In this document: piece after piece, positions 1 to 17,725 of the stretch
Numbering within the stretch: the first letter of the stretch is position 1
Layout of the letters: each line of letters starts with the position of its first letter
From: Thermoproteota archaeon
GTDB taxonomy: Archaea > Thermoproteota > EX4484-205 > JAAOZP01
DNA length: 17,725 nt
Reading direction: 5' to 3'
NCBI GenBank assembly: GCA_049700215.1
Contig: JBNAVT010000030.1
Coordinates: 1-17,725, forward strand
Translations under genes and position numbers: made by a program
The notes under the pieces: model-generated
Seen by the model: the letters and a program-made list of their open reading frames with translations, nothing else
Told to the model about the DNA's origin: nothing
Database searches by the model: none

Positions 1-2
1 CT

Positions 3-137: not shown

Positions 138-156
138 CGGAAGGTGCTGGAAGGAG

Positions 157-774: not shown

Positions 775-904
775 GTTCCCCCTTGTCTAGATGCTTAGAT
801 AACTCGCAGCTAGTTCCGTTCACCCTCCACTGCTTTTTACAGGATTATACTCCCGGCAAAGAGCATGTTTAAAAACTTCTTCTCACGGTTTCTCACCGGC
901 AGCC

Positions 905-2036: not shown

Positions 2037-2131
2037 GCCTTAGCAGTAATATTTGGCTTTAAGCCCTAGATTAATTTTTCCCCAGGGTTTGAGAGAGGTT
2101 TATAAGTCTCTTCAACATGGTTAACAAAGGA

Positions 2132-3565
2132 ATGAACGATGTCTTCGAACTCTTGAAAAAGGTTCTCGACTATGCTGTTGCAGCAGGCGCCTCCTATGCT
2201 GAAGCAAGGTTCCACAGCGATTCTCACCGCGGAGTATCCCTTAGGAACGGGGGGGTGGAGGGCGTTATGGCGAGCTACGAGGTGGGAATGGGGATCAGGG
2301 TTCTGGTTAACGGTGGACTCGGCTTCGCCTCCACCAACATGCTTAAACCGGAAAACCTCACCAGGGTTGTGGATAAAGCGGTTAAAATGGCGCGGGCATC
2401 CTCATGCTTGAAGTCAAGCAGGATATGTTTCTCGGAGGAGGAGGCTTACTCGGTTGACTGGCGGGTCTCTGAGAAAAAGAGGCTTGAAGACTGGTCTTTA
2501 AGCGGCAAAATCGACTTCCTGAAAAACCTGGATAAGGCTGCGACAAGCCAGGGGGTTAACGTTTCATCAAGACACATAGGATACTCTGAGAGGAGGACTG
2601 AGAGGGTTTACGCGAACACGGAGGGCGCACTGGTCTCAGCAGTGGTTCCACGACCCTCGTTTTTCGCGCTGATAACCGTGACAGACCCTTCCAAGGGAGT
2701 TATACAGAGGACCATTCAATTCGGAGGGTCAGGCGGCGTAGAAATCGTCGAATCCTGGAAGCTTGAGGAGAAACTGGGTGCTGAGGTCAAGACTCTTCAC
2801 AAGATGCTTACAGAGTCTGTCAGAGCCCCGGAGGGAGTTATGGACGTTGTAGTCGGCAGCGAGGTCGCGGGAATAATTTCTCACGAGGCCTCGGGACACC
2901 CTGGGGAGGCGGATAGGATACTTGGAAGAGAGGGGGCTCAGGCTGGTGAATCCTACTTGAAAGCAGAAGACTTGGGCAGGAAAATAGGGAGCGAGGCTGT
3001 TAACGTGGTTGACGACCCCGCTATACCGGGGTCATACGGGTTCTATCTTTTCGACGACGAGGGTGTTAAGGCAAGGAGGAAATTCTTGATCAAGGAGGGG
3101 AGAATATGCGAGTTTCTCATGAACAGAGAGACTGCTGCGAGGCTCGGCGTTAAGAGTAATGGTTCAGCCAGGGCCTCAAGATACGGCGTGGAGCCGATAG
3201 TTAGAATGTCCAACACCTTCATTCTTCCTGGCGACCATAGTCTTGAAGAGCTTTTAAGCGACGTTGCTAAAGGCGTTTACGTGAAGAGCTTCATGGAGTG
3301 GAACATCGACGACAAAAGGTGGAACCAGCGGTACGTGGGGCTGGAAGCCTACATGATAGAGGAGGGTAGGATAACTAGGCCCGTGAGAAACCCTGTGATA
3401 GAGATAACTACTGAAAGGCTTTTCTCAAGCGTTGACGCGGTCGGGAAGGATTTGGATTTCGTCGCAGCGACCTGCGGAAAGGGAGACCCGATGCAGGGCA
3501 TGCCAGTATACATGGGTGGGGCGAGCTTCAGGATGAGGAACATCATGATCAGGGGGGTTGGTTAA
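2132..3565 (+). CDS. tldD: TldD-family metalloprotease, catalytic subunit
   Basis: GIRVLVNGGLGFAST, metal motif HEASGH..EAD, FDDEGV, RMSNT and C-terminal CGKG.P.Q. ATG 2132 is preferred over 2117 because TTTATAAG (2099-2106) lies 25 nt before it. Confidence 0.93.
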   Translation: MNDVFELLKKVLDYAVAAGASYAEARFHSDSHRGVSLRNGGVEGVMASYEVGMGIRVLVNGGLGFASTNMLKPENLTRVVDKAVKMARASSCLKSSRICFSEEEAYSVDWRVSEKKRLEDWSLSGKIDFLKNLDKAATSQGVNVSSRHIGYSERRTERVYANTEGALVSAVVPRPSFFALITVTDPSKGVIQRTIQFGGSGGVEIVESWKLEEKLGAEVKTLHKMLTESVRAPEGVMDVVVGSEVAGIISHEASGHPGEADRILGREGAQAGESYLKAEDLGRKIGSEAVNVVDDPAIPGSYGFYLFDDEGVKARRKFLIKEGRICEFLMNRETAARLGVKSNGSARASRYGVEPIVRMSNTFILPGDHSLEELLSDVAKGVYVKSFMEWNIDDKRWNQRYVGLEAYMIEEGRITRPVRNPVIEITTERLFSSVDAVGKDLDFVAATCGKGDPMQGMPVYMGGASFRMRNIMIRGVG

Positions 3566-3567
3566 AG

Positions 3568-4896
3568 ATGGTTGAGCTGCACGAGAAGGCTTTGAAAATG
3601 CTTGCCGACAGGGGTGTCGAGGAAGCTATAGTGACTCTTTACGAGTCTGAGGAAAACTCCGTGAGGTATGCTAACAACGAGCCTACTATAGCTCTTTCAG
3701 AGAACATCAGCACCCTGACGATATACAGCAGCATTAAGGAGAGGTGTTTCGCAGGGAGTTTTGAAAACGTGTCTGAGGATTTCCTGGAGAAGATCGTCGA
3801 CGACGTGGTGACCCTCACTAAAAACACTCCTCCAACACCTTTCTACGCGCCTCTTCCAAGGGGAGTATTCAACTACAGGGTTGGGAAGAGGGTGGAAAGG
3901 AGGATTAGACAGCTTGACGAGCAGCTTGTTTCACTTGTTTCCGAAGCCGTTAAGGCGAGCAGGGAGGCGGGTGCGGAGAGAAGCGCGGGAATACTCTACT
4001 CGAGCCACATGGTTGAGAAACTCGCGTCTTCAACAGGCTTAAGCCTTCAAGAAGAGTTTGCATCCCTCACGCTTAACCACCGCGCGTTCGCCAGCCCGGA
4101 GGCGACAGGACAATGGGTCTCATGCTCCACGAGCCTCGAAGGCTTCAACCCTTACGATGCAGGTAGGAAGGCTGGGGAAATAGCTGTGGCGAGCCTCAAC
4201 CCTGTTCTCATCGACGAGGGGGCTTACGATGTCTACATGGGGCCCCTAATATTTGCAAACATTATGAGCGAGGTAGCTGGCTTCGCCTCAGGCTTCCTCG
4301 TACAGATAGAAATGAGCTTCATGACAGGCAAGATTGGCCAGAAAATCGGCTCTGAGAAACTAACTATCCGCGACGACCCCACGATGCCAGGTGGGCTTGG
4401 CGAAAAGATTTTCGACGACGAGGGCATACCGACTCAGAAAACAATCATAATTGAAAACGGTATTCTCAGAAGCTACCTGCATAACAGCAGGACAGCCAAG
4501 ATCGCTGGAGCATCGTCAACCGGCAACGCTGGAATAATAAGGCCCCACCCGTGGAACATCGTGGTTGAACCCGGAAACACTAAGGAGGATAGTATGCTGC
4601 AGAAACTGGGGAAAGGACTATACCTAACCAACTCGTGGTACCAAAGGTATCAAAACTACAGGACTGGAGACTTTTCAACCATCGTGAGGGACGGAGCGTT
4701 CTACGTGGAGGACGGGGAGGTTAAGCACCCGGTTAAGGGGATTCGAATAAGCGACAACCTCCAGAGAATCATCTCAAACATTGAGGAGCTCTCTGACAGG
4801 CTTTACGGAATACGCTGGTGGGAAGTCAGTACCCCTACGTATGTTCCCACAGCAATAGTCAGGAACGTTAGAATAACCAAAGCCTTTGGTCAATAG
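3568..4896 (+). CDS. pmbA: TldE/PmbA-family non-catalytic partner subunit
   Basis: Starts 2 nt after the tldD stop. Has DDP...FDDEG.PT, IIENGIL.SYLHN..TA, STGNAG and TGDFS, and lacks HExxxH. Confidence 0.9.
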   Translation: MVELHEKALKMLADRGVEEAIVTLYESEENSVRYANNEPTIALSENISTLTIYSSIKERCFAGSFENVSEDFLEKIVDDVVTLTKNTPPTPFYAPLPRGVFNYRVGKRVERRIRQLDEQLVSLVSEAVKASREAGAERSAGILYSSHMVEKLASSTGLSLQEEFASLTLNHRAFASPEATGQWVSCSTSLEGFNPYDAGRKAGEIAVASLNPVLIDEGAYDVYMGPLIFANIMSEVAGFASGFLVQIEMSFMTGKIGQKIGSEKLTIRDDPTMPGGLGEKIFDDEGIPTQKTIIIENGILRSYLHNSRTAKIAGASSTGNAGIIRPHPWNIVVEPGNTKEDSMLQKLGKGLYLTNSWYQRYQNYRTGDFSTIVRDGAFYVEDGEVKHPVKGIRISDNLQRIISNIEELSDRLYGIRWWEVSTPTYVPTAIVRNVRITKAFGQ

Positions 4897-5036
4897 CTTA
4901 GATAGCGCGCGGCATTATCGTGACACCATTGGATTGATTGCGAAGAACCGGCTCTTCAACCGGCTTAAATGATCCAGTTCATTCTTCAGGATGCTTGTGA
5001 CCTTAGATAGGAAGTTAAAACTGTTATTACGTGCTT

Positions 5037-5408
5037 CTAGAGTGCCTCTTCCTCTATTCCCTTGCTCACCAAGAATTCGTTCATCATCTTCTTGCTCAAG
5101 ATCATCTCTCTGGCTTCGGCAATGGCATCGACCCTCCTCACGATCTCGTCGATCAATTGCTCATCGCTCATCCTCGTTGAGTCGAAGGTCGTCACGAAGC
5201 CTGATTCATAGTCTATTTCGAACTTAACATCGAGTTTATGCTTCTCGCTAACCCTCCTAGCTACTTCATCGGCCCACATGTGCTCCTTCTCGAAATCATA
5301 AAACGAAACTAGGATAGCTCTTATGCCGAGCTTGTTCCACTTAAGCCTTATTGGCTCCTCCAACCGGATCTCAGGTATAAAGCGGGGCAAATCAATAGCG
5401 GAGGGCAC
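5037..5408 (-). CDS. Hypothetical protein (123 aa), possibly the C-terminal part of a frameshifted gene
   Basis: Protein-like composition, GTG start with GGAG 4 nt upstream. The frame stays open upstream to about 5481, overlapping the Cys-rich ORF. Confidence 0.6.
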   Translation of the reverse strand: MPSAIDLPRFIPEIRLEEPIRLKWNKLGIRAILVSFYDFEKEHMWADEVARRVSEKHKLDVKFEIDYESGFVTTFDSTRMSDEQLIDEIVRRVDAIAEAREMILSKKMMNEFLVSKGIEEEAL

Positions 5409-5422
5409 TATGCTCCAAGGCT

Positions 5423-5662
5423 CTAAAAGGGTGCGGAGCTCGCGAAGCTGTCCGCCTTCGGCGGCGAGTAAGAACCGGATTTAACACAGACTGAGGCGTA
5501 AACACAGGTCTTGCAGCTCACCGTGAGGTCCCTTACCCTCAAGCCCCTGGAGACGCACAGGTTAACAAGACAGGCATCCATCCTCGAAGGAGTGCAGCCG
5601 CCGCATAATTGGTATAGTTCACAACCCCTGCATGGCTTCCAGCATCGTCCAACTCCACCCAT
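5423..5662 (-). CDS. Small Cys-rich metal-binding protein (DUF3795-like pattern)
   Basis: 10 Cys within residues 7-59: C-x3-C-x2-C-x5-C-x2-C-x7-C-x4-C-x13-C-x2-C-x5-C. TATA-like GTTAAATA on the minus strand at 5692-5699. Confidence 0.7.
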   Translation of the reverse strand: MGGVGRCWKPCRGCELYQLCGGCTPSRMDACLVNLCVSRGLRVRDLTVSCKTCVYASVCVKSGSYSPPKADSFASSAPF

Positions 5663-5719
5663 CGGTTTACATAAATATAGTGCTAAGGAGATATTTAACT
5701 AAAACCCTTGAGTATTAGC

Positions 5720-6838
5720 CTAGATCAACCCGGTTATTATCGCGACGCCTACTATTAAGAGTAGGACGCCTGCCAGGAGTCTCATGTATCTCCTTTTCTC
5801 AATCCTCCAAGCGTCGATCTCAATCACGCTTCTGCCGAAGTATACTGTTAGGAGTATTGCTACGAGCGGTAGTATGAATACCAGATTGTAAAGGAGGAGT
5901 AGGAGGAATACTTCAAGCGTCAAGCCTATTTCAGAAAGCAGGTATAGTATTGTTATGTATATTCCTCCTGTACACGGGAGTTCAACCATTGAGACCGCCA
6001 TGCCGACTAGAAAGCCTCCGCCAATGCTTATCGTCTCCGAATACTTGCCTAGGATTCTGGTTAGGGCTCCGGGCTGCTCAAGGCTGAAACCCCTTCCATA
6101 GTAGAAGAACTCTTTAAACTCTAGAATGCTGAACAGGATGGCTGCTGAACCAACCAAGTAGCGTAACAGGCTTCTGAACGAGGCTATGCTGATCACGTAC
6201 AGCAAGCCTATTCCTGCAGCCAAGTAGGACGCCATTACGCCCGTAATGAAGGCTACGCAAGTGGTCAGCATTCTTCTCGACGAGCCCGCTTGAAGAGAGT
6301 ATGTGATGAGTAGAATAATCGTTGCGAATGCGCATGGGTTCAACGAGTCTATGAGGGCTGCGACGATCACGCTGACCAGCGGGGGCAGGGTGACAGTAGG
6401 CTTATGCTGCTCAATAAAAGCCATTATTATTTCTCCAGCCTTATCGTGGTATTCACGGCCATGGCTGTACTCAAGTATGGTTTCCTCAAGGTTTTTAGTG
6501 ATCTCTTCCTCGCCAACCAGGCACGTGTCTCCTATGAAGACCATCGGAACCTCGCGAAGCTCCTCCGTTATGTTGAAGCCTTCGGTGAGAGCAATGAATA
6601 ACTCTATATTTGTATCGTTGCTGGATATGTCGAACCTTTTGAAAACTACTTCAGGATGCCTCGTCTTAATGCTGCTGATGTAGTCCTCAACCCTAGCGCA
6701 ATGCTCACACCCCTCGGCGACGAAGCAGTAGACAGTTATGGTTTGAGGCGTGGCGAAGACTGTTAGGCGAGCAGCCAATAGTAGAGCCGTTAAAACAGTC
6801 AGAAACACCGGAGGATTTAGGGAGGAAGAATGAGCCAA
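5720..6838 (-). CDS. Thioredoxin/glutaredoxin-like domain fused to a CcdA/DsbD-type transmembrane electron transporter
   Basis: N-terminal signal/TM segment, CEHC and cis-Pro motif VPMVFIG, then about 6 TM helices with the paired CcdA cysteines DSLNPCAF and VELPCTGG. Confidence 0.88.
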   Translation of the reverse strand: MAHSSSLNPPVFLTVLTALLLAARLTVFATPQTITVYCFVAEGCEHCARVEDYISSIKTRHPEVVFKRFDISSNDTNIELFIALTEGFNITEELREVPMVFIGDTCLVGEEEITKNLEETILEYSHGREYHDKAGEIIMAFIEQHKPTVTLPPLVSVIVAALIDSLNPCAFATIILLITYSLQAGSSRRMLTTCVAFITGVMASYLAAGIGLLYVISIASFRSLLRYLVGSAAILFSILEFKEFFYYGRGFSLEQPGALTRILGKYSETISIGGGFLVGMAVSMVELPCTGGIYITILYLLSEIGLTLEVFLLLLLYNLVFILPLVAILLTVYFGRSVIEIDAWRIEKRRYMRLLAGVLLLIVGVAIITGLI

Positions 6839-6849
6839 GATTAAGACCC

Positions 6850-7737
6850 TTATTTTAAAACGAATGTTTTAGTCACGTTTAGGCTCAACGTGTTGTATCG
6901 AACGACGCATGAAAGATTGTTCAGCCCGCTTGAAATCCCGTAGCAAGGCGAGCATGGAATATCGATGCTGAATGATTTAGAGTTGAAGCCTTTTTCAACA
7001 TTAACCTGTAGAACTCCAGACGGGTCAATCCATTTATTGTTCACAACATACCCTCTGTAACGGCTCTTAAAGCCAAATATTTCGATATTGATGCGGCCAA
7101 GCTTCTGACTGCTGAGCACAATTATCGTGAAGTTAACCTCGCCTTTAGACAACTGGTACTCTTCTCTATCAGTTAGAGCTGAGAGAACAATCGTCAAGTC
7201 TTCTTGAGAATAAATACTGGTGGTATAGGAGTTAAGCTTTGAAAGGTATTTGTTAGCACTCTCAACCGCCCCTATGATCTCTAAACATGTTTCAGCCAAG
7301 CTACGGTTTACGAGCCAGTAGGAGAAGAATTCTAAAACGCTTTGATTATAACTATTGCCATCAGCCATGTGGCTATACTTGTCGTCGAAGAGAAGAGCAC
7401 TACCATAATCAGCCGCGTCAACACGCTCCATTAGAAAAGAGATTCTTTCAAACCTCTGTTGCTCACGCAAATACTGGGTATAGTCTAGACTATTGTTTAG
7501 CAGCCAGTGTGAGAAGAAGCCTAGGACACTCCGGTTATATTCTCCATCAGAAGCCAGATAACCGTATTTCTCGTCGAACAGGGAAGCCTTAGCGTAATCA
7601 GTCGTGTTAGCATATTTCATGAGTGAAGAAATCCTCTCCGACCGTAAACGCTGCTCAGCATAGTATTGATAACCGAAATAACCCGCCGTGACCAATATGG
7701 TTACGATCGCCAGCGTGACTATGGTTCCATGCCGCAT
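6850..7737 (-). CDS. Membrane-anchored surface protein with internal 63-aa duplication and C-terminal CxxC
   Basis: Single N-terminal TM, many N-x-S/T sequons, repeat ERIS.LM...DY..A.LFD.KY...YN.SVL.FFS.WL.N.SL twice, and IPCSPCYG. ATG 7737 is preferred over 7761 from the TATA position (7764-7771, minus strand). Stop is 11 nt before the Trx-CcdA start. Confidence 0.82.
   Translation of the reverse strand: MRHGTIVTLAIVTILVTAGYFGYQYYAEQRLRSERISSLMKYANTTDYAKASLFDEKYGYLASDGEYNRSVLGFFSHWLLNNSLDYTQYLREQQRFERISFLMERVDAADYGSALLFDDKYSHMADGNSYNQSVLEFFSYWLVNRSLAETCLEIIGAVESANKYLSKLNSYTTSIYSQEDLTIVLSALTDREEYQLSKGEVNFTIIVLSSQKLGRINIEIFGFKSRYRGYVVNNKWIDPSGVLQVNVEKGFNSKSFSIDIPCSPCYGISSGLNNLSCVVRYNTLSLNVTKTFVLK
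7297..7644 (-). repeat. Intragenic tandem duplication, 189-nt period
   Basis: Residues 40-92 and 103-155 of the 303-aa ORF align without gaps at 29/53 identity (hand count). Confidence 0.9.
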
Positions 7738-7763
7738 TCCTCTCCTAAACATCTTCCACATGA

Positions 7764-7777
7764 ATTATAAACTTTTC
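7764..7777 (-). promoter_or_regulatory. BRE/TATA promoter for the surface protein and Trx-CcdA operon
   Basis: Minus strand reads GAAAAG-TTTATAAT, 26 nt before ATG 7737. Confidence 0.6.
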
Positions 7778-7827
7778 AAATTCCGCTCGAATTTTCTGGA
7801 GTCAAGCCTTATCTACACCCGTTTGTA

Positions 7828-7863
7828 TAAAGTTTAAATAATAGTTGGATAAAACACCCAAGT
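7828..7863 (+). promoter_or_regulatory. BRE/TATA promoter plus palindromic operator, copy 1
   Basis: TAAAG-TTTAAATA (TATA 7833-7840), a 4-nt gap, then TTGG-ataaaacac-CCAA (7845-7861). ATG follows at 7869. Confidence 0.78.
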
Positions 7864-7868
7864 ACCTA

Positions 7869-8423
7869 ATGACCCATACTCAGTCAAGGCTTCTAGCGAA
7901 AAGGGTTGCCATGCTAGCCGTATTGACGGCCCTAGCAATCTCCTCAAACTATGTTCTGATAAGCCTGCCAAACGTTAAGCTTATGGATGCGATAGTTTTC
8001 GCGTCAAGCATGGCTATGGGTTTAAAGTTTGGAGCAATACTCGCAACACTCATATGGATGGTCTACGGGACCTTGAACCCCTACGGGTTCAGCCTACCGA
8101 CGCTAATAGTCGTTACGCTCAGCGAAATGATATACGTATTGTCCTCAAAAATACCACCAGCATTAGGATTCAAGGCTGATGGAGTAAACATCCATAATTC
8201 TTTAGTTCTTGCTTCAATAGGGCTGTTTTCAACCCTGATATACGATCTTGCGACGAACGCCTTTGTAGGATACTTGTTCTATGGATCTGTTTTAATGGGG
8301 CTAGTCACGATGAACTTCCCCATCCCCATGGGTATTATTCACGAGCTTTCCAACGCATTATTCTTCCCGATCGCTGTACCAGTCATATACAGGGTTTTGA
8401 AAGGCGGTACCGCTGCTCCTTAA
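7869..8423 (+). CDS. ECF transporter S-component, CbrT-like (predicted cobalamin/corrinoid specificity)
   Basis: About 184 aa with roughly 6 hydrophobic helices. N-terminal 'VAMLAVLTALAI' followed by 'LPNVKL', the PNV signature I associate with CbrT-like S-components. A DUF4430 gene lies next to it. The ORF-track TTG start at 7845 falls inside the operator, so ATG 7869 is used. Confidence 0.8.
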   Translation: MTHTQSRLLAKRVAMLAVLTALAISSNYVLISLPNVKLMDAIVFASSMAMGLKFGAILATLIWMVYGTLNPYGFSLPTLIVVTLSEMIYVLSSKIPPALGFKADGVNIHNSLVLASIGLFSTLIYDLATNAFVGYLFYGSVLMGLVTMNFPIPMGIIHELSNALFFPIAVPVIYRVLKGGTAAP

Positions 8424-8473
8424 GAAATTGCTTACGTTGTAAAAACTTCATGAAAAATACGCGCCGGAGGAGA

Positions 8474-8620
8474 ATGAAAGAGGGGAAGAAACAAAGAGAA
8501 CTTTTTAGAGCACAGACAAAACAACCTTGTGCACTTGATAGGGACGCGCATCATGATTCATTGTATAGCGCGCGATTCGCTCGTGTTCCGAATATTTGGA
8601 GAATTCATAAAGCTTGGTAA
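8474..8620 (+). CDS. Possible 48-aa small ORF (doubtful)
   Basis: GGAGG at 8466-8470, then ATG 8474; reads MKEGKKQRELFRAQTKQPCALDRDAHHDSLYSARFARVPNIWRIHKAW. No recognisable motif, and the SD spacing is short. Confidence 0.15.
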   Translation: MKEGKKQRELFRAQTKQPCALDRDAHHDSLYSARFARVPNIWRIHKAW

Positions 8621-8709
8621 AGGCGCGCTCTTCCGTATGTCGCGCAAACCCAGTATTTCACAACCATGAATTTCAACTATAACTTTATATGCAACGCTCT
8701 TTTCTACCT

Positions 8710-8772
8710 GCGTTTTGCGCATCGCAAAGCGCGCACTATTATTATACTCCTGGAATTGTAGTACGTGCGCGC
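8710..8772. other. Two overlapping, mutually exclusive inverted repeats
   Basis: GCGTTTTGCG-cat-CGCAAAGCGC (8710-8732), and GCGCGCAC (8729-8736) pairing with GTGCGCGC (8765-8772) with further imperfect inner pairing. Confidence 0.5.
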
Positions 8773-8811
8773 CTACTGGCTCCAGTCTCCGTTTGTAATA
8801 ATAACTCGGAG

Positions 8812-8847
8812 TAAAGCTTAAATAAAGGTTGGATAAAATGACCAACC
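8812..8847 (+). promoter_or_regulatory. BRE/TATA promoter plus palindromic operator, copy 2
   Basis: TAAAG-CTTAAATA (TATA 8817-8824), then GGTTGG-ataaaatga-CCAACC (8827-8847). 8812-8845 matches 7828-7861 at 28/34 nt. Confidence 0.78.
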
Positions 8848-8871
8848 AGCGCTACGGAGGGTGTGGGAACA

Positions 8872-9369
8872 ATGTCTAAGGAAGCTCGACATTACAAGAG
8901 GCTTTTAATAATCGCAGTTATCATTTTTGTAGCAGTACTCGTTGGAGAAACCCTCTACCTAGTTGGTCTTATGAGACGGTTGAACACGCTTACGGAGGAA
9001 ATGGAGACCCTCGCGAGGAGCGTTGAAACAATAACTCTAAGAGTAAGCCTCCTCGTAAAGTATGACAATGACACCGGAGTATGGTTCAATAACACTCTTG
9101 TACCCGTCGGCTGGACCCTGTTCAACCTGACCCTTTATGCTCTGGGAGGAAAAGTAGATTATCAAGTACACCCGTTCGGCGTGTTCGTCACGGGGATAAA
9201 TGGCGTGAGCCAGCATGGGAGTCACTACTGGTTCTGGTACAGGTGGGATCATGAGACGCGGGACTGGATTCTTGGGGAAACGGGTGCAGACTCATATGTT
9301 CTCAGGCGTAATGACGTTTTAGCATGGTATCTTGCAGACGCAAGCAGTTGGCCGCCGGCTAAGCCTTAA
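8872..9369 (+). CDS. Membrane-anchored DUF4430 / transcobalamin-like C-terminal domain protein (CbrS-like, predicted corrinoid binding)
   Basis: N-terminal TM, short coiled segment, then G.TLF.L...GVFVTGINGV...YWFWY.W...GADSYVL...DVLAW, typical of DUF4430. GGAGG at 8856-8860 precedes ATG 8872. Confidence 0.85.
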   Translation: MSKEARHYKRLLIIAVIIFVAVLVGETLYLVGLMRRLNTLTEEMETLARSVETITLRVSLLVKYDNDTGVWFNNTLVPVGWTLFNLTLYALGGKVDYQVHPFGVFVTGINGVSQHGSHYWFWYRWDHETRDWILGETGADSYVLRRNDVLAWYLADASSWPPAKP

Positions 9370-9403
9370 CGTTTTTTTATAAGCCCCGTTCAATCTATTA
9401 TAG

Positions 9404-10018
9404 TTGTCGACGCTGGTGTCTTTAAGAAGGATTGCCCAGGAATGCATGAAACACCCTAAGCACTATACGCCTGGCCACGTTCTCCTAACCATTCTACACA
9501 TAGGTGAGGGCTCTGTTTCACGGGCTAAGCTTCAAAAACTGCTCGGCCTAGGAGAGGCCTCTGTCAAAAGCATGGTTAAATGCATGAAGAAACATGGTTT
9601 AATCTCTACTTCGGCCAGCGGCAGCAGGTTAACCAGCAGGGGAATAGGGGTTTTTAAACGCGTTAGGCTTCAGGTTCCAGAGCTTAGGAAAATCGGTTTG
9701 GACTATTTGTCGGTTGGAAGGGTTAATTACACGGCTGTCTTGAGAAACATGGAGCCCCTTGACGCTTTGAAGATCAGGGATATGGCTGTTAGACTTGGGG
9801 GGAGTGGGGCGGTGCTCCTCTCCCTGGAAGAAGGGGGTCTTAAAATACCTTATGTCGCGGAGGACCTTAGAAGCATCTCGGCTAAAGACTGCAAGGAGCT
9901 TAGCAAAATGAGCCTTAAAGACAAGGATTTCATACTTGTTGTGGGTGGGGAGGATGACCGTTCAGCCCTGGGGGCCCTAGGGTCGATACTTCTGGAGCTG
10001 CTTACGCGTCAAGCTTAA
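9404..10018 (+). CDS. Winged-helix protein with DUF4443-like C-terminal domain (putative transcription regulator)
   Basis: HTH and wing: SRAKLQKLLGLGEASVKSMVKCMKKHGLI...GSRLT.RG. C-terminal 'IRD.AVR.GG.GAV...GGL..P' pattern. TTTATAAG at 9376-9383 upstream. Confidence 0.8.
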   Translation: MSTLVSLRRIAQECMKHPKHYTPGHVLLTILHIGEGSVSRAKLQKLLGLGEASVKSMVKCMKKHGLISTSASGSRLTSRGIGVFKRVRLQVPELRKIGLDYLSVGRVNYTAVLRNMEPLDALKIRDMAVRLGGSGAVLLSLEEGGLKIPYVAEDLRSISAKDCKELSKMSLKDKDFILVVGGEDDRSALGALGSILLELLTRQA

Positions 10019-10045
10019 ATCTGGGCGTGGAGCATTAGCAGCAGG

Positions 10046-10888
10046 TTGACAATAGCCGTTTTAACGCATAAGCCATACTCGTACTCATCCATACGCCTTA
10101 TGGAGGAGGCGGGCAAGCATGGCGTCGGCTGTCAACTTGTCTCGTTCAGCGACACGGCGCTCCTTGTGAAAGAAGGCAGGGTTGAGCTCAGGGTTTTCCA
10201 GGATAAGGGGGTTCGAAGGGTTTTCTCAAGGCCCAAAACCCTGTTAAGCCCTATAATGATGTACGCGCTCTCGTTAACCAGGATTCTTGAGGAGGAGGGG
10301 CTTTACGTTGTTAACCCGTTTAAAGGGTTCATGAATACTCTAGACAAAATGATTACCTATAGGAATCTTTGCCTTAGGAATCTTCCAATACCTGATTCGC
10401 TGCTCACGCCTTCGCGGGAAAGAATTCGGGAAATGTCCCAGCCCTTCTTCCTGAAGCCGATATACGGCTCAAGGGGGAGAGGGGTTAAACTCGTTGAAAA
10501 CATGAACGCCATGCCTAGTCTGGAAGCCCACGGCGCATGGGTTGCTCAAGCCCCAGCTAGGGACCTGGACTGGGACCTCAGGGTGCTCGTCCTAGACGGC
10601 CGTGTGCTTGCAGCGATGAAAAGAGTTTCGAATAAGCCTGTTACGAACATATCTCAAGGCGGGGTTGGGGAAGCCTTTGGGAAAGAGGGGGAGGTGGCGG
10701 AGCTGGCCGTAAGGGCTTCCGAGGCTTTAAACTGTGTTTTCGCTGGTGTCGACATGTCTTTCAAGCAAGGCGAAGCTTTTATACTTGACGTTAACCCCCA
10801 ACCGGATTTCATGGGTGTTGAGGAAGCAACCGGTGTGAACGTGGCTCGAGAGATAATCCGCCACATGTTTTCCAGGGTGGGGGGATAG
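10046..10888 (+). CDS. RimK/CofF/MptN-family ATP-grasp alpha-L-glutamate ligase
   Basis: VVNP...DK, KPIYGSRGRGV, DLRVLV, R...TNISQGG, FAGVD and DVNPQP (canonically EVN). CTTAAATC at 10014-10021 lies 24 nt upstream. Confidence 0.88.
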   Translation: MTIAVLTHKPYSYSSIRLMEEAGKHGVGCQLVSFSDTALLVKEGRVELRVFQDKGVRRVFSRPKTLLSPIMMYALSLTRILEEEGLYVVNPFKGFMNTLDKMITYRNLCLRNLPIPDSLLTPSRERIREMSQPFFLKPIYGSRGRGVKLVENMNAMPSLEAHGAWVAQAPARDLDWDLRVLVLDGRVLAAMKRVSNKPVTNISQGGVGEAFGKEGEVAELAVRASEALNCVFAGVDMSFKQGEAFILDVNPQPDFMGVEEATGVNVAREIIRHMFSRVGG

Positions 10889-10890
10889 TC

Positions 10891-11508
10891 TTGAAGACGA
10901 TTGGCCTAGTTATAGCGCTTGGACATGGGGAGGAGGGTTTCGTAGAGCTGAACCAGCTTGAAGGGTTCCCGGTTTTCCTCCACGTCGTCAGGAACATTGG
11001 GGAAATAGCTGAGGAAGTAGCCCTAGCAGTGGCTAGGGATTCTCAGAGCCTTTTTGCCGAAGCCGTTTCCCAATACGGCTTCGAGGAGTGCAGCATCCTA
11101 GGCTTAAACAATACTGAAGACCTGTTCAGCACTTTTAAAGAATGCTTGGAGAAGGTTTCGGGTGAAGTGGTTGTAACCGCTCCGGCTAACGCTCCCCTCA
11201 TACCTGTTGACATACTCGCCCTTCTAGCGGAGCTCTGCGAGAAGAGGGATGCTGTGCTGGTTAGGGATGTGAAGGGGGGTGTGGACTGGCTCCTATCCGC
11301 CTACAAGAGGCGGAGCTTCATGGATGTTGTTGAAGCAAGGAGGCCGGGGGGCTTCGAAGAGCTCGTCGACGGGCTGAGGAGAGTCATGTACATAGCATAC
11401 TCCAGTTTGAAAGACATCGACCCTATGCTTTTCACTAACATAAGGGTTACGCGTGCCTCCGACATACCTTTCGTAGAGAAGATCCTTAAGGGGTCGAGGA
11501 GGCGTTAG
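10891..11508 (+). CDS. MobA-like nucleotidyltransferase-fold protein with degenerate catalytic motifs
   Basis: Overall layout follows archaeal MobA (G.P...HV; EEVALAV; P..APLI...IL..L; AV.VR...G.V..L.SAY; L..IDP.L), but the LAGG/R..G..K, CD, EPL and N.NT motifs are altered. Confidence 0.7.
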   Translation: MKTIGLVIALGHGEEGFVELNQLEGFPVFLHVVRNIGEIAEEVALAVARDSQSLFAEAVSQYGFEECSILGLNNTEDLFSTFKECLEKVSGEVVVTAPANAPLIPVDILALLAELCEKRDAVLVRDVKGGVDWLLSAYKRRSFMDVVEARRPGGFEELVDGLRRVMYIAYSSLKDIDPMLFTNIRVTRASDIPFVEKILKGSRRR

Positions 11509-11509
11509 G

Positions 11510-12256
11510 ATGATCAGGATATTCGGGATAAAGTACGACGGCTTCATTAAAAAGGGCGATAATCTTGCTAAAATAACTATAGAGTCGCTCCGGAAGGATG
11601 GTGTGGAGGTTGAGAACAGGGACGTGGTGACGCTCACCCATGTTGCGGTTTCCAAGGCCCTGGGCTGCACGATTAGGCTTAGCGAAGTCAAGCCGAGCCC
11701 CCTGGCGGTAGCGCTTGCAGACAGGCTCCGCAAGCCGCCTGAGGAGGTGGAAATCATACTTAGGGAGAGCAGGGAAATAGTTAGGCTGTCCAGAGGGCGG
11801 ATAATAACTAGGAACAGGGGTGGAATAGTCTGCGCCAACTCGGGAATAGATTTGTCGAACGTAGACGGGGGCTTAAGCATGGCTTTCCAGCCGAGAAACC
11901 CGGACAGGATTGCTAGGAGGATAAGGAAGCAGTTTCTAGACGAGAATGTTGATGTTGGAGTAATAATAACGGATTCTTTTGAAAGGCCATTCAGGATGGG
12001 GCAGGTTAACATGGCGATAGGATGCTCCGGTTTAGCCCCCATTAAAGACTTGAGGGGTAGAACAGACCTGTTCGGATACGTTTTAAGGTTTAAACGGATG
12101 GCGATCGTCGACGAGCTTGCTGCTGCAAGCGAGCTTGTTACAGGCAGCTCTTCAGAAGGCTTCATAGGCGCGTTAGTAAAGGGGTATCAGTATGATTTCT
12201 CAGACGACGGTGTTAAAAGCATTCTGAGAAGCAGAAAAACAGACTTGTTCCTTTAG
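11510..12256 (+). CDS. cofE: Coenzyme F420-0:gamma-L-glutamate ligase family protein
   Basis: IKKGDNLA, VSKA.G, CANSGIDLSNV, IITDSF.RPFR.G..NMAIG.SG, DLRG.TDLFG and DELAAA..LV.G. Confidence 0.9.
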   Translation: MIRIFGIKYDGFIKKGDNLAKITIESLRKDGVEVENRDVVTLTHVAVSKALGCTIRLSEVKPSPLAVALADRLRKPPEEVEIILRESREIVRLSRGRIITRNRGGIVCANSGIDLSNVDGGLSMAFQPRNPDRIARRIRKQFLDENVDVGVIITDSFERPFRMGQVNMAIGCSGLAPIKDLRGRTDLFGYVLRFKRMAIVDELAAASELVTGSSSEGFIGALVKGYQYDFSDDGVKSILRSRKTDLFL

Positions 12257-12317
12257 GCTTCGAAATCTTTTAAACCCGTGAAGAAACTGTTAATAACCCT
12301 CCTACCATTTAGGAAGC

Positions 12318-13013
12318 ATGGTTGAAGGCGCCCCGGTTATGCACGAGGGAGAGCTAATCGGGTTTGTTAAGAAAGAGTATGAGACTGCTAGGCTGATAGA
12401 GGTTATTCTTACGCGCGACCCCGGGAGGCAGATAGATCTTAAGGCTCTTAAAGAGGATTTAAGAAGGCTCTCCAAGCCATATAAGGCTCTTTCCCCGGAA
12501 GCCGCTGAACTACTGGATGAGGATTCAATACTGGTTAGCAGGGCCCTGGCCAACTCGGTGGCACTGCCCTTCGTTAAACCTGTTATGAAAACCCTGGTTC
12601 CGTTAGAGATGTTCAAGCCAATAGCCGGGACCCAGCACATCCTTCAGATGGACCTGCCGGGCCAAGACCTGACCTTCGGCATTGAAGACAGGCTTGCAGG
12701 CATACCTGGGTTGGCTGGCGAATGGTTTGTGGGCAGGGTTGACGGGATAATAATCAGGAGGAGACACGGGTCTGTGGAAGTGCCTGTTAGAACCGGCATG
12801 ATGGCTCCGCGCGCTGAAGGGGCGGGAGAGTGCCTCACCATCTTCGACTTAAACAATGGTTTGAAAACGTTCAAAACGCTTGCTGAAGCGAACATCCCGA
12901 TCATGCATGGTGACGTCATGCTTGTAGACGGGGCTCTGGATGAAAAGAAGGCTGTTTTAAGGGCGAGGCTCATCTTCCTTATAAGGTCTAGAGAGATGTG
13001 GGTTTTCGACTAG
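12318..13013 (+). CDS. Hypothetical protein (231 aa)
   Basis: Long ORF with typical composition. The beta-rich C-terminal half (FVGRV...GDVMLVDG...LRARLIF) hints at an OB-like fold; family not recognised. Confidence 0.75.
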   Translation: MVEGAPVMHEGELIGFVKKEYETARLIEVILTRDPGRQIDLKALKEDLRRLSKPYKALSPEAAELLDEDSILVSRALANSVALPFVKPVMKTLVPLEMFKPIAGTQHILQMDLPGQDLTFGIEDRLAGIPGLAGEWFVGRVDGIIIRRRHGSVEVPVRTGMMAPRAEGAGECLTIFDLNNGLKTFKTLAEANIPIMHGDVMLVDGALDEKKAVLRARLIFLIRSREMWVFD

Positions 13014-13651
13014 GAAACCGGTTTAACCATTGTCGCGACGATTTCAGGGTTTTCAGAGAGCACCCCTATTTTCCAAACAGGCAGGATTAAGCAGCCCTCC
13101 AAAACCCTTGCCTCAGAATCTAGAAAAGTAACCACCACCGGGTAGACAGGCTTCCTAGTGTTCCTCCTTTCCAGTAGGTGGCGAGATAGTTTCCTAGACC
13201 TCTCAAGCTGAAGCCTACAGGCTGAATGAATATTATAGTTTCTCTTAACCCACTGCTTGCAGTCTATTGAAATAAGCATCCTCGGCGCCTCGACTAGGAC
13301 GTCAACCTCCCTAACAGTCTTTTCAAGGTTGAACCTGAAGTGCTCCATGACTCTGAAGCCCTTAACCCTGAAAACTTCAGCGATAATTCTTTCAAAACCC
13401 CTCCAGTTAACCGATTTTAAAACACTTTCAAAACTGACTCCGGAATCAACCGCGTGTTTAACAAGCATTAGAAAGCCTTCGGGAAGCACTTTAACCCTCC
13501 CTCCTGACTCCACGGCCCCGCCTCCTTCGGAAAGCAGCCTTAAACACTCCAAGTACTCCGACGCTTCCCTCCTGCCTACCAGCGGCCCCTCCTCCAGAAG
13601 CCTCTTTAAAAGCCTGAGGCAGAGTGTTCCTCCACATTCCCCGGATGACAT
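13010..13651 (-). CDS. PD-(D/E)XK nuclease-fold protein (Mrr_cat/restriction endonuclease-like)
   Basis: WRGFERIIAEVFRVKGF...REVDVLV...ISIDCKQW, after an N-terminal winged-helix-like segment. Convergent 4-nt overlap with the upstream gene. Confidence 0.85.
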   Translation of the reverse strand: MSSGECGGTLCLRLLKRLLEEGPLVGRREASEYLECLRLLSEGGGAVESGGRVKVLPEGFLMLVKHAVDSGVSFESVLKSVNWRGFERIIAEVFRVKGFRVMEHFRFNLEKTVREVDVLVEAPRMLISIDCKQWVKRNYNIHSACRLQLERSRKLSRHLLERRNTRKPVYPVVVTFLDSEARVLEGCLILPVWKIGVLSENPEIVATMVKPVS

Positions 13652-13670
13652 GCGAGAGAGTAGGATGAGG

Positions 13671-13686
13671 AAGAATTATATTTATG
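13671..13686. promoter_or_regulatory. Probable bidirectional TATA element
   Basis: AAGAATTATATTTATG is the only AT-rich block in the 52-nt gap between divergent starts 13651(-) and 13704/13707(+), and lies about 20-25 nt from each. Confidence 0.5.
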
Positions 13687-13703
13687 GTTTGGAGCGTAGA
13701 ACA

Positions 13704-14186
13704 GTGTTGAACACGGCCTGGGCGATGATAATCATAGCCCTGTTGACCTGCCCTCAGACCACGGGAAACGGGGAGGAAGTCTACGTTACTGTAGTTTTGA
13801 AGATAACCCCCTTCGAACCGCCGGGAAGACACGATTTCAAGGTATACGTGAACGGTTCTTCAAACCCGTTTGGAGCGGAGCTTAAAGTAGATGCTTCTCA
13901 ACCCCTTGTTTTCAAAGTCCCGAAAGGGAGCTACCTGCGGATAAGCGGTGAGCTGGAGATAGCTGGCGACTATGGCTTCTGGTTCAGGCTGGAGAACGTT
14001 AACGGTACGGGTCGCTCCATAGAGTTCAGGGCTGACCGTGACTCCACGGTTTTTCTAAGCTATACGACTAACCACCTTCTTGCATCACCATATTTTATAG
14101 CTGTCTACTTGCTTTTAGCACTACTTTTCATCAGGAGACTAGTCGCATCGCCGAAGCGGGTGAAAACTTTAAAAAGCAGCGCGTGA
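13704..14186 (+). CDS. Small surface protein: signal peptide, beta-rich domain, C-terminal TM anchor
   Basis: Only the 3' part of the 309-aa track ORF. Hydrophobic N-terminus (LNTAWAMIIIALLTC), sequons NGS and NGT, and C-terminal SPYFIAVYLLLALLFI followed by a basic tail. Start is uncertain (13704, 13707 or 13665). Confidence 0.75.
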   Translation: MLNTAWAMIIIALLTCPQTTGNGEEVYVTVVLKITPFEPPGRHDFKVYVNGSSNPFGAELKVDASQPLVFKVPKGSYLRISGELEIAGDYGFWFRLENVNGTGRSIEFRADRDSTVFLSYTTNHLLASPYFIAVYLLLALLFIRRLVASPKRVKTLKSSA

Positions 14187-14199
14187 ACAAACTGTGGAA

Positions 14200-14757
14200 A
14201 TGAGCAGGAGTAAGCCTATTATTCTGATCGCTGGAGAGCTTGGGGCTGGTTGCACGGAGGTTGGGGAGCTTCTTTCCAGAAAGCTCGGCGGCGTAGAAGT
14301 TTACAATACTGAGAAATTCATAAGGAGCATTGTTTCCTCCCCGCACCTGAGTTTCCAAACCCTCGTGGCGAAATCAATCTCGGGTGAGATAGAGATAGAG
14401 AAGGTTTTGCAGAGCCTGGTTCTCGACGTGGTTAATAATGGTCCCGCAATAATAGAGGGTAGGAGCGCCCTGTTCGCGTTGGCTCGCGAAGTTGATCTGA
14501 AGGTCTTCCTGTATAGTGATTTCGACGGCAGGCTGAAGCATATAGCTGATAAAAGGAAGACTGACGACTTGAAGCAGATAGAGGAGGATATTAAGGCTTC
14601 AGACATAGATAGGAGCAGCCTTGTTGAAAGGCTTTTTCACAGGAATTGGAGAGACCCCTTGCTGTACGACGTTATGATAAACACTTCTAAAGTGCCTTAT
14701 GAACAAGTCGCTTCATTCATAATCGAGGCCCTGAAGCTTACGCATGATCGTTATTAG
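14200..14757 (+). CDS. Cytidylate kinase-like protein (Cmk / cytidylate_kin2 family)
   Basis: IAGELGAGCTEVG (P-loop with Lys replaced by Cys), IIEGRS, LKVFL and YDVMINTS. GAAAAC-TTTAAAAA (TATA 14168-14175) lies 24 nt before ATG 14200. Confidence 0.85.
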   Translation: MSRSKPIILIAGELGAGCTEVGELLSRKLGGVEVYNTEKFIRSIVSSPHLSFQTLVAKSISGEIEIEKVLQSLVLDVVNNGPAIIEGRSALFALAREVDLKVFLYSDFDGRLKHIADKRKTDDLKQIEEDIKASDIDRSSLVERLFHRNWRDPLLYDVMINTSKVPYEQVASFIIEALKLTHDRY

Positions 14758-14773
14758 GACTCATGCTAAACGT

Positions 14774-14787
14774 TAAAGATTTATATA
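14774..14787 (+). promoter_or_regulatory. Consensus BRE/TATA promoter for the small basic protein
   Basis: TAAAGA-TTTATATA (TATA 14780-14787), 23 nt before ATG 14811, which is leaderless geometry. Confidence 0.75.
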
Positions 14788-14810
14788 TGACTCGACGGGA
14801 AAATATCATC

Positions 14811-14969
14811 ATGAGCGGAGCCAGTACTGGTGGAGAAGCAAAACCTGCACAGCCTGCGCCTGCACCTGCACCAGCGCCTGCACCTGCGCCTGCGAAGCCT
14901 CCAGCAAAGAAGGCTAAGAAGCCTGCTAAGAAGGCTAAGAAAGCCAAGAAAACCAAGAAAACAAAGTAA
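14811..14969 (+). CDS. 52-aa Pro/Ala/Lys-rich basic protein resembling histone H1 tails
   Basis: MSGASTGGEAKPAQ(PA)7KPPAKKAKKPAKKAKKAKKTKKTK. 15 Lys and 1 acidic residue. Variation among the (PA) repeat units is confined to third codon positions. Has its own TATA, a TAATAA double stop and a T-tract. Confidence 0.8.
   Translation: MSGASTGGEAKPAQPAPAPAPAPAPAPAKPPAKKAKKPAKKAKKAKKTKKTK
14853..14894 (+). repeat. 7 x 6-nt tandem repeat CC(T/A)GC(A/G) encoding (PA)7
   Basis: cctgcg cctgca cctgca ccagcg cctgca cctgcg cctgcg. Confidence 0.9.
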
Positions 14970-14992
14970 TAAAGATAGCTCGCGCTAAATCG

Positions 14993-15005
14993 TATTTTTT
15001 CTCTT
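14993..15005 (+). terminator. Archaeal oligo-T terminator
   Basis: TATTTTTTCTCTT about 25 nt after the small basic protein stop, before the convergent HAD gene. Confidence 0.55.
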
Positions 15006-15012
15006 CGCATGC

Positions 15013-15648
15013 TTAGCACACTAGTTTGACAATATCTTTAAGATTGCTTACGACGAACATGGCTTCATGACCATCCGGCGGAGGGGCGCCGGGTTTGGCA
15101 CAGAGGATGGATGTTTTAACAGCTTTAAACATGCTTTTATCGTATACCGTGTCCCCGACTGCAGCAGTCTCGTTCAAAGGAATAGAGTATTTTTCACACA
15201 CCCTTTTTAAAACATCCACTTTTCTAGAGGGATCCACGTTGATTTTCACGATCCCCGTAAAACAGCCACGGCTGTCGAAAATCATCTGGTTGGAGACGCA
15301 TTCATCAGCGGCAAGTATTCTGCACACCCTTTCGGCAAGCACATCCAGGCCGCTCGTGACAATTACTCTCAACACCCTTTTTTCCCCAAGCTGGCTAAAC
15401 ACCCAGCGAGCCTCCGGCTTCACCCTAACCTTGGAGAAAACCTGCTCGAAAAAGGCTTTGGGTAGCCCCCGGGGCCACAGGCTGACGTCGTGCTTCACGA
15501 ATTCCTCGTAGCTTATTTCCCCTCTGGAGAATTTTTCAAGCGCCCTCCTAGCAATATGGTCAGTCCCCAGGAACCTGTGTACAGTACGCCAGCTGCTCTC
15601 ATCCTCGACAAGCGTACCGTCCATGTCGAAGAAAACTATCCTAATCAT
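15013..15648 (-). CDS. HAD-IB family phosphatase (phosphoserine phosphatase SerB-like)
   Basis: Motif I FFDMDGTL, SSW, motif II IVTSG, motif III K (SRKVDV) and motif IV AVGDTVYD. Confidence 0.9.
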   Translation of the reverse strand: MIRIVFFDMDGTLVEDESSWRTVHRFLGTDHIARRALEKFSRGEISYEEFVKHDVSLWPRGLPKAFFEQVFSKVRVKPEARWVFSQLGEKRVLRVIVTSGLDVLAERVCRILAADECVSNQMIFDSRGCFTGIVKINVDPSRKVDVLKRVCEKYSIPLNETAAVGDTVYDKSMFKAVKTSILCAKPGAPPPDGHEAMFVVSNLKDIVKLVC

Positions 15649-16210
15649 ATGTAGCGAGGCTCATTGTTTCAACGAAGGCTGCTGCGAGCAGGAGGCTGCC
15701 GACTATTAGGAGGGTTGTCAAGTATCCTCTGAGCTCCCTGTTAACCCTTTTCTCGATTATGGCGAAAAGGCCGGCTAAACCTTGGGCTGAGGCTAAGCCG
15801 TATGCTAGGAATTCAAGTATACCGGATGGTGTTGAAAGAAGCCGGATGGCGAGCGAGAGCGAGTTCAGGCTTCTCAGAGTTGAAATAGCTGATACAGCAA
15901 CCCCGGTTGTTGACGAGGAGATTATGCTGAACCCGAATCCAGCCACAGGTATCATCATTATGATGCTTAGGGCAAGATTATGCGCAAAAATATCCAGCGG
16001 CCCAGTGAAACTTATGCTTCCCGAAACAGAGGCATATATTTCCTCGGCTAAAGACTTGTCAAGGGGGATTACGGAGGAGAGGAGGAAAACAGTTGAAAAC
16101 AGGAAGACCGTTATCGGGAAAAGACCCCACTTTGTGTGGAGGAACGGGGGGAACGCTCCACTGTCCCGATTACCCCTGTAGCTAAAGCTTAGTTTTTCAA
16201 CAGTCCACAA
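15641..16210 (-). CDS. SpoIIM (DUF95) family integral membrane protein
   Basis: IFAHNL...IPVAG, TPSGILEFLAYGLA..QG and LLLAAAFVE. Overlaps the HAD start by 8 nt. Confidence 0.82.
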   Translation of the reverse strand: MWTVEKLSFSYRGNRDSGAFPPFLHTKWGLFPITVFLFSTVFLLSSVIPLDKSLAEEIYASVSGSISFTGPLDIFAHNLALSIIMMIPVAGFGFSIISSSTTGVAVSAISTLRSLNSLSLAIRLLSTPSGILEFLAYGLASAQGLAGLFAIIEKRVNRELRGYLTTLLIVGSLLLAAAFVETMSLATYD

Positions 16211-16304
16211 ACTTGGAGGACCCTTGCACCGCCCAAAATATAAGGTTTACTGAAGGATTACACTCTTGCTGCTTTTAAATAGCTCAGGCTCGACGTTTCA
16301 AAGC

Positions 16305-16883: not shown

Positions 16884-16895
16884 AAGGCGTTTTCT

Positions 16896-17714: not shown

Positions 17715-17725
17715 CGTTTTAGACG

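Follow-up and report, generated by a model that had tools for sequence, protein, structure and literature searches.

A 17-base-pair promoter palindrome and a neighbouring DUF4443 protein as candidate elements of corrinoid import control in Candidatus Brockarchaeota

How might an archaeon adjust the import of corrinoids to its needs when the mRNA of an import gene leaves no room for a riboswitch? The question is raised by a stretch of 17,725 nucleotides (nt) from a Thermoproteota archaeon of the order Candidatus Brockarchaeota (assembly GCA_049700215.1, contig JBNAVT010000030.1, positions 1 to 17,725 of the forward strand; hereafter the window). It encodes, one after another, a CbrT-like S-component of an energy-coupling factor (ECF) transporter, a DUF4430 protein resembling the beta domain of transcobalamin (cbrS-like), and a protein with a winged helix-turn-helix (wHTH) and a DUF4443 domain (Table 1). 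A sequence-only reading of positions 7,828 to 10,018 had noticed that the promoters of the first two genes share an operator-like motif and had suggested a dimeric, possibly corrinoid-sensing repressor, which it left unnamed; this repressor is most likely the product of the third gene within the same coordinates. Altogether, we consider it reasonably probable that two elements of 17 base pairs (bp) are operators of a one-component repressor, namely the adjacent wHTH/DUF4443 protein, which would control the corrinoid import pair.

The source genome of the window (G000, an assembly of 2,089,643 bases with a completeness of 94.6%) encodes the B12-dependent NrdJ and one protein with a B12-binding domain. 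With such B12-dependent enzymes present and neither CobS nor CbiB found in this genome, the organism is probably reliant on the uptake of corrinoids. For Brockarchaeota, a dependence on corrinoid methyltransferases has been described (PMC8065059). The comparisons covered 26 genomes of the order, the source genome included, and, at the level of the phylum, 401 Thermoproteota genomes. In what follows, L-numbers stand for individual loci and G-numbers for genomes, while g and f mark the genera and families compared.

The palindrome in the window and across the order

The two promoter copies, TAAAGTTTAAATAATAGTTGGATAAAACACCCAA (starting at 7828) and TAAAGCTTAAATAAAGGTTGGATAAAATGACCAA (starting at 8812), lie 984 nt apart, and a recount on the sequence returned the 28 identical positions out of 34 that had been claimed for them. 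In both copies, TTGG begins 4 nt past the (T/C)TTAAATA box, as had been read, and the second copy takes the extended form GGTTGG-N9-CCAACC (8827-8847). The motif had not been noticed in other promoters of the window, and this holds, as TTGG-N9-CCAA matches there exactly twice. Taken alone, this count is only weakly significant (0.32 matches expected; at least 2 in 10 of 200 shuffles). Genome-wide, there are 9 sites in the 2,089,643 bases, compared with 45 for the reversed pattern, which was used on the same sequence sets as the control for palindrome counts, and only the two sites of the window come after a TATA box. The part of the promoters with the B recognition element (BRE) and TATA box is generic, since TTAAATAA occurs 92 times in the genome.

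The relatives give the true shape of the element, which is a 7-3-7 palindrome, TTGGAYA-WWW-TRTCCAA, with arms of 7 nt around an A/T spacer of 3 nt (e.g., TTGGATAAATTATCCAA), so that the 4-9-4 shape of TTGG-N9-CCAA had to be given up. For the same reason, an earlier remark on three adjacent mismatches between the copies is half right: the mismatches are there, but they fall inside the right half-site of the 7-3-7 palindrome, not in a spacer. S-component orthologues were found in 23 of the 26 genomes, and the palindrome stands ahead of the gene at 22 of these 23 loci, where an operator was accepted with at most 2 mismatches to TTGGAYANNNTRTCCAA at 20-55 nt before the gene. Phylogenetic footprinting, which had been proposed as a check, therefore speaks for an operator: the palindrome is retained while its flanks drift, and the orthologous copies are even better palindromes than those of the window. 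The TATA box ends 4 nt ahead of the palindrome in most loci, with a TTTAAATA-type box at the equivalent position in most of them, and the remaining flank bases vary. A second palindrome is present ahead of the DUF4430 gene at all 12 loci of the genus in which the genes are unfused.

The 26 genomes contain 33 exact matches to TGGAYAWWWTRTCCA, as against 1 to the reversed control; the 33 consist of 29 sites at this locus, 2 at nrdD promoters and 2 inside coding regions. A position weight matrix was trained on 34 orthologous sites, both window sites among them, and in the source genome it gives these two sites 23.9 and 19.9 bits, while the next best genomic place reaches 12.8. The operator is thus almost certainly a real protein site. 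The idea of a co-regulated pair stands as well, as both promoters carry the operator, although the "regulon" that had been announced consists, in the source genome, of these two promoters and nothing more.

It had further been argued that there is no room for a riboswitch, with which we agree: the ATG lies 7 nt past operator 1, leaving a leader of about 8 nt at most, and no Rfam family, the cobalamin riboswitch RF00174 included, reaches its gathering score in the window.

Two side observations concern the surroundings of operator 2. An ATG within the operator opens a frame of 13 codons (8838-8879), whose TAA end overlaps the region where the DUF4430 gene starts; should transcription begin near 8847, this frame probably has no meaning. 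The S-component gene and the second promoter are separated by 388 nt (8424-8811), versus about 60-140 nt in most relatives, and an antisense open reading frame of 95 amino acids (aa; 8558-8845) without a Pfam match lies in this gap. The gap was considered as a mobile element and rejected as such, having no second copy in the genome and no match at the loci of relatives.

Table 1. Features of the locus, in positions of the window
Feature	Position	Strand	Basis or remark
BRE-like TAAAG and TATA box TTTAAATA (7833-7840), promoter of the S-component gene	7828..7840	+	read from sequence
Operator 1, TTGGATAAAACACCCAA	7845..7861	.	left half-site intact, right half-site with 2 mismatches to TRTCCAA; matrix 19.9 bits
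CbrT-like ECF S-component, membrane protein of 184 aa	7869..8423	+	family profile match to 6FNP_A
TATA box CTTAAATA of the DUF4430 gene	8817..8824	+	read from sequence
Operator 2, TTGGATAAAATGACCAA	8829..8845	.	right half-site with 1 mismatch; matrix 23.9 bits
Protein of 165 aa, N-terminal membrane-anchor helix and DUF4430/transcobalamin-beta-like domain (cbrS-like)	8872..9369	+	weak PF14478 match and predicted fold
Winged-helix and DUF4443 protein, candidate repressor	9404..10018 (TTG 9404 or ATG 9446)	+	PF14544, PH0730 profile match

The import pair and the candidate repressor

The S-component of the window has no Pfam or NCBIfam match (0 Pfam families even at E 10), and its assignment comes from its family. 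When a profile of 13 sequences was searched against all PDB chains at E<=10, it matched 6FNP_A with E 1.1e-5 and, besides, one unrelated chain by chance with E 0.42. Among solved structures, the orthologue profile thus matches only ECF-CbrT (6FNP chain A), in line with the CbrT-like nature that had been suggested for the gene. The 6FNP entry is the structure of the ECF-CbrT vitamin B12 transporter (PMC5997447). The Pfam S-component models are matched by some of the 13 relatives, PF12822 by 4 (best 7.1e-7) and PF07155 by 2. An EcfA-EcfA'-EcfT module is encoded elsewhere in the source genome, with a CbiQ/EcfT gene at C9:9090-9668 and two ABC_tran genes before it.

In five relatives (L008, L009, L019, L021 and L022) a single frame encodes the S-component joined to the DUF4430 protein, giving fusion proteins of about 343-444 aa by the chosen start codons, or 358-452 aa as open frames, and for this reason the two are taken to act together. 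Four of these loci (L008, L009, L021 and L022) carry a single operator.

The DUF4430 protein is recognized better by its fold than by its sequence. PF14478 gives 20.3 bits on the window protein, under the cut-off of 23.8, and is weak in 12 of 14 relatives (best E 5.7e-5), while the Asgard counterpart in L046 passes it with 69.8 bits. A search with the sequence profile of the family against PDB returned nothing significant (best E 0.08, to a lectin), due to which a fold search was needed. The model of the window protein, with a predicted local distance difference test score (pLDDT) of 89.3, consists of a long N-terminal helix with a hydrophobic anchor and a beta-rich domain. Ranks 1-17 of its Foldseek matches are 3u7z and the beta domains of transcobalamin, haptocorrin and intrinsic factor (E 6e-6 to 5e-4), with template modelling (TM) scores of 0.73-0.79 on small targets and of 0.73-0.74 to the isolated human beta domain (5no0, 5np4). 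The predicted fold is therefore that of the cobalamin-binding beta domain of these three proteins, which agrees with the transcobalamin-like family named beforehand.

As to the candidate repressor, PF14544 matches it with E 4.2e-13 (49.5 bits, cut-off 27), while the CggR_N and PH0730-like_N models match its N-terminal wHTH weakly. Because the residues ahead of 9446 are conserved in relatives, translation probably starts at TTG 9404. In a profile comparison with PH0730 (2P8T) the match is full-length, with E 2.6e-19, and the predicted structure (pLDDT 93.5) reaches a TM score of 0.80 to 2p8t. The C-terminal domain of the model resembles the GAD insertion domain of AspRS over about 100-120 columns, with TM scores of 0.40-0.46 when taken on model length. 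NiaR is also among the Foldseek matches, with overall TM scores of only 0.25-0.29 and root-mean-square deviations of 12-16 Å, and BirA appears too. The wHTH itself resembles those of CggR, DtxR, MntR and IdeR, of which the metal repressors align over 65-75 residues only; the DtxR-type metal-binding/dimerisation domain is absent, the C-terminal half being DUF4443.

The DUF4443 gene occurs in 23 of the 26 genomes of the order, as one copy in 22 and as two in G003, and genera g1, g3, g4 and g6 retain the trio of S-component, DUF4430 and DUF4443 genes. The DUF4443 protein is likely to be the one that binds the palindrome, and likely also to act as a repressor there; it would do so as a dimer.

Downstream of the candidate repressor, at a distance of 27 nt, lie genes for a RimK-type ATP-grasp ligase, a MobA-like nucleotidyltransferase and CofE (F420-0:gamma-glutamyl ligase), at 10046-12256. 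A functional link of these genes, which would imply an F420- or folate-type substrate, was considered and rejected: the synteny holds at 14 of 14 genus-level loci and at none beyond, where the loci of other families, of a Nitrososphaerota metagenome-assembled genome (MAG) and of Asgard archaea were compared.

The same box in other lineages and the competing explanations

Enrichment of the palindrome before corrinoid genes had been proposed as a check, and in other lineages it does stand at nrdD, at cbtB-cbtA and at btuFCD-type operons. In genus g5, 2 genomes have an assembled nrdD promoter (L065 and L066), and in both the palindrome lies 3 nt past its TATA box; in the third, nrdD is at a contig start. 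The g5 genomes also encode the B12-dependent NrdJ. At the nrdD promoters of other genera, none of the 27 other nrdD-family loci scanned exceeds 11 bits. The nrdD gene of the source genome (C11:2986-9867) is a side observation: it is a single frame of 2431 aa in which the NRDD model matches in five separate pieces, which suggests several inteins, and close relatives share the split NRDD pattern in open frames of 1107-2826 aa.

The members of family f5 are ammonia oxidisers, AmoA having been found in all 5 genomes checked for it, and all 16 exact sites of the family lie at the promoter of cbtB-cbtA, just upstream of the TATA box. The gene pair encodes proteins of 71-82 aa and 240-244 aa, and CbtB or CbtA was confirmed by Pfam at 8 of the loci. 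A DUF4443 gene is found within 1.7 kilobases of the site in 14 of 16 cases, mostly divergent from cbtB-cbtA. In nearly all ammonia-oxidiser loci, cbtA is followed by a small HTH_20/TrmB-like gene of 109-113 aa (L119-L134; e.g., L132:2578-2904), which could be a second regulator of the cbtBA operon. As a binder shared with Brockarchaeota it was rejected, having no homologue in the source genome (best E 0.36), and DUF4443 is therefore regarded as the shared factor.

Each of the 5 sites in family f7 stands at the head of a Peripla_BP_2-FecCD-ABC (btuFCD-type) operon. The PF14544 scan is negative in all 17 genomes of this family, and a search with the regulator profile yielded nothing convincing in the 5 genomes that carry a site; a divergent DUF4443-like gene of 196-206 aa was nevertheless found beside the operon in 4 of 5 (local hidden Markov model; hhalign probability 94.9%, E 4.4e-8). 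At two f7 loci, a gene for a tetrapyrrole (corrin/porphyrin) methylase adjoins the palindrome-bearing operon (L139:232-1002 and L140:4124-4891).

Beyond these families, the Asgard loci L046 and L047 have GTAGGATATTTTATCCTAC straight after a TTTAATAA box, heading an operon of DUF4430, x, S-component and DUF4443 genes; the half-site there is TAGGATA, as against TTGGATA in Thermoproteota. A Nitrososphaerota MAG (L045) has the same three genes in divergent arrangement with a 17-bp palindrome, GGATGGATAATCCATCC, between them (5836-5870), which shares the TGGAT half-site but has a spacer of 1 nt, and because of this different spacing its relation to the box is uncertain. Three further exact 17-mers, two in coding sequence (L135 and L136) and one between glnA and an Lrp gene (L137), were set aside as chance or unrelated.

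Several observations weigh against the reading preferred here. In the window, both operators have weakened right half-sites, with the degenerate CACCCAA and TGACCAA in place of TRTCCAA, and the CbrT match is remote and spans the first 100 residues only, for a protein that has no Pfam match of its own. Within the order, the fused locus L019 shows no operator within 3 mismatches before the S-component gene, and in genera g5 and g2 the DUF4443 gene is present on another contig, away from the operator. The only conserved residues of DUF4443 that are potential metal or corrinoid ligands are H11, D112 and D161. Across the phylum, DUF4443 is encoded in 325 of the 401 genomes and the exact 17-mer occurs in 34 (reversed control in 5), while in many families the neighbours of the gene are unrelated (HSP20, PAC2, GPN-loop ATPase and ABC ATPase genes); the family may lack one uniform function. 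No DUF4443-type gene is near the site in the ammonia oxidiser G353 or in the f7 genome G134, and in G180 the gene is far off. Finally, in f5 and in the f7 locus analysed in detail the operator is upstream of the TATA box, not downstream, and the mode of action there could differ from that in the window. To these points must be added the cobalt genes of f5, where the operator controls cbtB-cbtA, predicted to encode a cobalt transporter, which a cobalt sensor would suit equally well.

It is this last point that gives some weight to the possibility that operator and regulator work as described with a cobalt ion as the effector, the DUF4443 protein being a metal sensor. The likeness of its wHTH to those of DtxR, MntR and IdeR would be in keeping with this. 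However, the Brockarchaeota operator is found before the genes for a CbrT-like S-component and a transcobalamin-beta-like binder and before nrdD, the regulator lacks the metal-binding/dimerisation domain of DtxR and conserves few metal-ligand residues, and cobalt would tell the cell little about its cofactor supply, because neither CobS nor CbiB turned up in the source genome. The bacterial cbtAB genes are themselves under B12 control, as Rodionov et al. reportedly found in 2003. We therefore hold a cobalt sensor to be unlikely. We are similarly reluctant to believe that the palindrome is the true operator of another transcription factor, with the DUF4443 gene merely a conserved neighbour. Such a factor would explain why the regulator gene is unlinked in g5 and g2 and why DUF4443 has a much wider distribution than the exact palindrome, and the extra HTH gene in the cbtBA operon of ammonia oxidisers might be a candidate for it. 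Against this, a DUF4443-type gene is the only regulator gene beside the palindrome in Brockarchaeota, ammonia oxidisers, f7 and Asgard archaea, and it is the small HTH gene that has no homologue in the source genome, whereas DUF4443 is found in most genomes of the order.

An activating or dual role of the regulator, in place of repression, seems improbable to us. What would favour it is the placement of the palindrome in f5 and in the detailed f7 locus, immediately ahead of the TATA box, and some archaeal factors (TrmBL1, Ptr2) do activate from such a position. Nevertheless, the Brockarchaeota site, in the window and elsewhere, has the TATA box on one side and the start codon on the other and covers the expected transcription start, which is the classical position of a repressor, and in f5 no more than 3 nt separate the palindrome from the TATA box, which leads to an overlap with the BRE and is compatible with repression. 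The explanation to which we give hardly any credence is that of a local promoter duplication, in which the 34 nt shared by the two strong promoters would reflect common descent, no operator being involved. The window count that shuffling can reach and the generic BRE/TATA part are what it has in its favour; it is contradicted by the conservation of the palindrome, in better form, at 22 of 23 orthologous loci with diverging flanks, by its near-uniqueness in each genome, and by its reappearance in other classes, where it stands ahead of unrelated genes for cobalt and corrinoids.

A proposed mechanism and its place among known systems

The preferred reading, that of a DUF4443 repressor of the import pair, can be put as a mechanism. 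A DUF4443 dimer would sit on TTGGAYA-WWW-TRTCCAA, 4 nt past the TATA box and over the expected transcription start. As a general rule, transcription begins about 26 nt past the centre of the TATA box; here it would start near 7863 and 8847, with the operators at about -18 to -2, the first mRNA being nearly leaderless and the second having a leader of about 25 nt that contains a GGAGGGTG element. Because the palindrome begins past the TATA box and covers the start, the bound dimer should permit the binding of TBP and TFB and block the recruitment of RNA polymerase, a step at which known archaeal repressors act. The membrane-tethered DUF4430 (cbrS-like) binder would capture the corrinoid, and the CbrT-like S-component would import it, with energy from the EcfA-EcfA'-EcfT module, whose genes lie at another place in the genome. 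When intracellular corrinoid, or a derivative of it, is ample, the GAD/3H-like C-terminal domain would bind it and both promoters would be shut. A corrinoid is the effector that we slightly favour, given the genes that the operator heads.

The same logic is known from the cobalamin riboswitch regulons of bacteria (RF00174), which have the same targets, namely corrinoid importers, cbtAB and B12-independent isozymes such as nrdD, and which are likewise off when B12 is plentiful. What differs is the means: the bacterial riboswitch is part of the mRNA leader, whereas here a palindrome in promoter DNA would be read by a candidate protein. To our knowledge, archaea lack the B12 riboswitches that organise cobalamin metabolism in bacteria. 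As for the import pair, cbrT of Lactobacillus delbrueckii is found in an nrdJ-cbrS-cbrT-pduO cluster (PMC5997447). The archaeal locus is similar in that the S-component is accompanied by a second small protein and the ECF module is encoded elsewhere in the genome, but the match is remote, and in some relatives the partner is fused to the S-component. CbrS is, we presume, also a DUF4430 protein.

Among regulators, NiaR (a helix-turn-helix with a 3H domain) and BirA likewise combine a wHTH with a small ligand-binding domain and use a palindromic operator at promoters for uptake or synthesis, and archaeal RbkR and ThiR are further one-component repressors of vitamin genes. In contrast to the NiaR type, the sensor domain here is DUF4443, of a family without a characterised member, and the proposed effector is a corrinoid. 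The full-length homologue PH0730 of Pyrococcus horikoshii (2P8T) is a structural-genomics entry, whose title records no function, ligand or DNA site. Cobalamin is coupled to transcription in bacteria by CarH/LitR and AerR-CrtJ, mostly light-sensing proteins, through a Rossmann-type domain (PF02310), which the regulator of the window does not have. In 2003, Rodionov et al. are said to have predicted a CBL-box for a hypothetical B12 regulator of archaea, none being named. The CBL-box and the palindrome share the idea of a DNA signal that is read by a protein and replaces the riboswitch upstream of archaeal B12 genes. Our literature search found no paper naming DUF4443 or the CBL-box and nothing relevant on an archaeal B12 regulator, and one review that mentions a B12 regulatory element has nothing on a protein regulator in archaea. 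As far as we found, no archaeal B12-responsive regulator has been described so far.

To hypothesize further, DUF4443 proteins could be an ancient family of archaeal B12-sensing repressors, binding corrinoids directly by way of a GAD/3H-like domain and acting through a GGATA-N3-TATCC box in Thermoproteota and Asgard archaea, although we put this forward only tentatively, at somewhat less than even chances. If it is true, the family governs the import of corrinoids and of cobalt as well as which ribonucleotide reductase is used, marine ammonia oxidisers included. Archaea account for much of the cobalamin that is made and used worldwide, and marine ammonia oxidisers supply much of the ocean's B12. 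The system is compact and testable, consisting of one protein of 190-204 aa, one 17-bp site and two promoters. Experiments are feasible, since the same site and protein family occur at the cobalt-uptake genes of ammonia oxidisers, some of them available in culture; Sulfolobus acidocaldarius, for which genetic tools exist, has a DUF4443 gene too. The palindrome would permit the prediction of B12 and cobalt regulons from archaeal metagenomes and, if the hypothesis is correct, the palindrome together with DUF4443 would serve archaea as B12 riboswitches serve bacteria.

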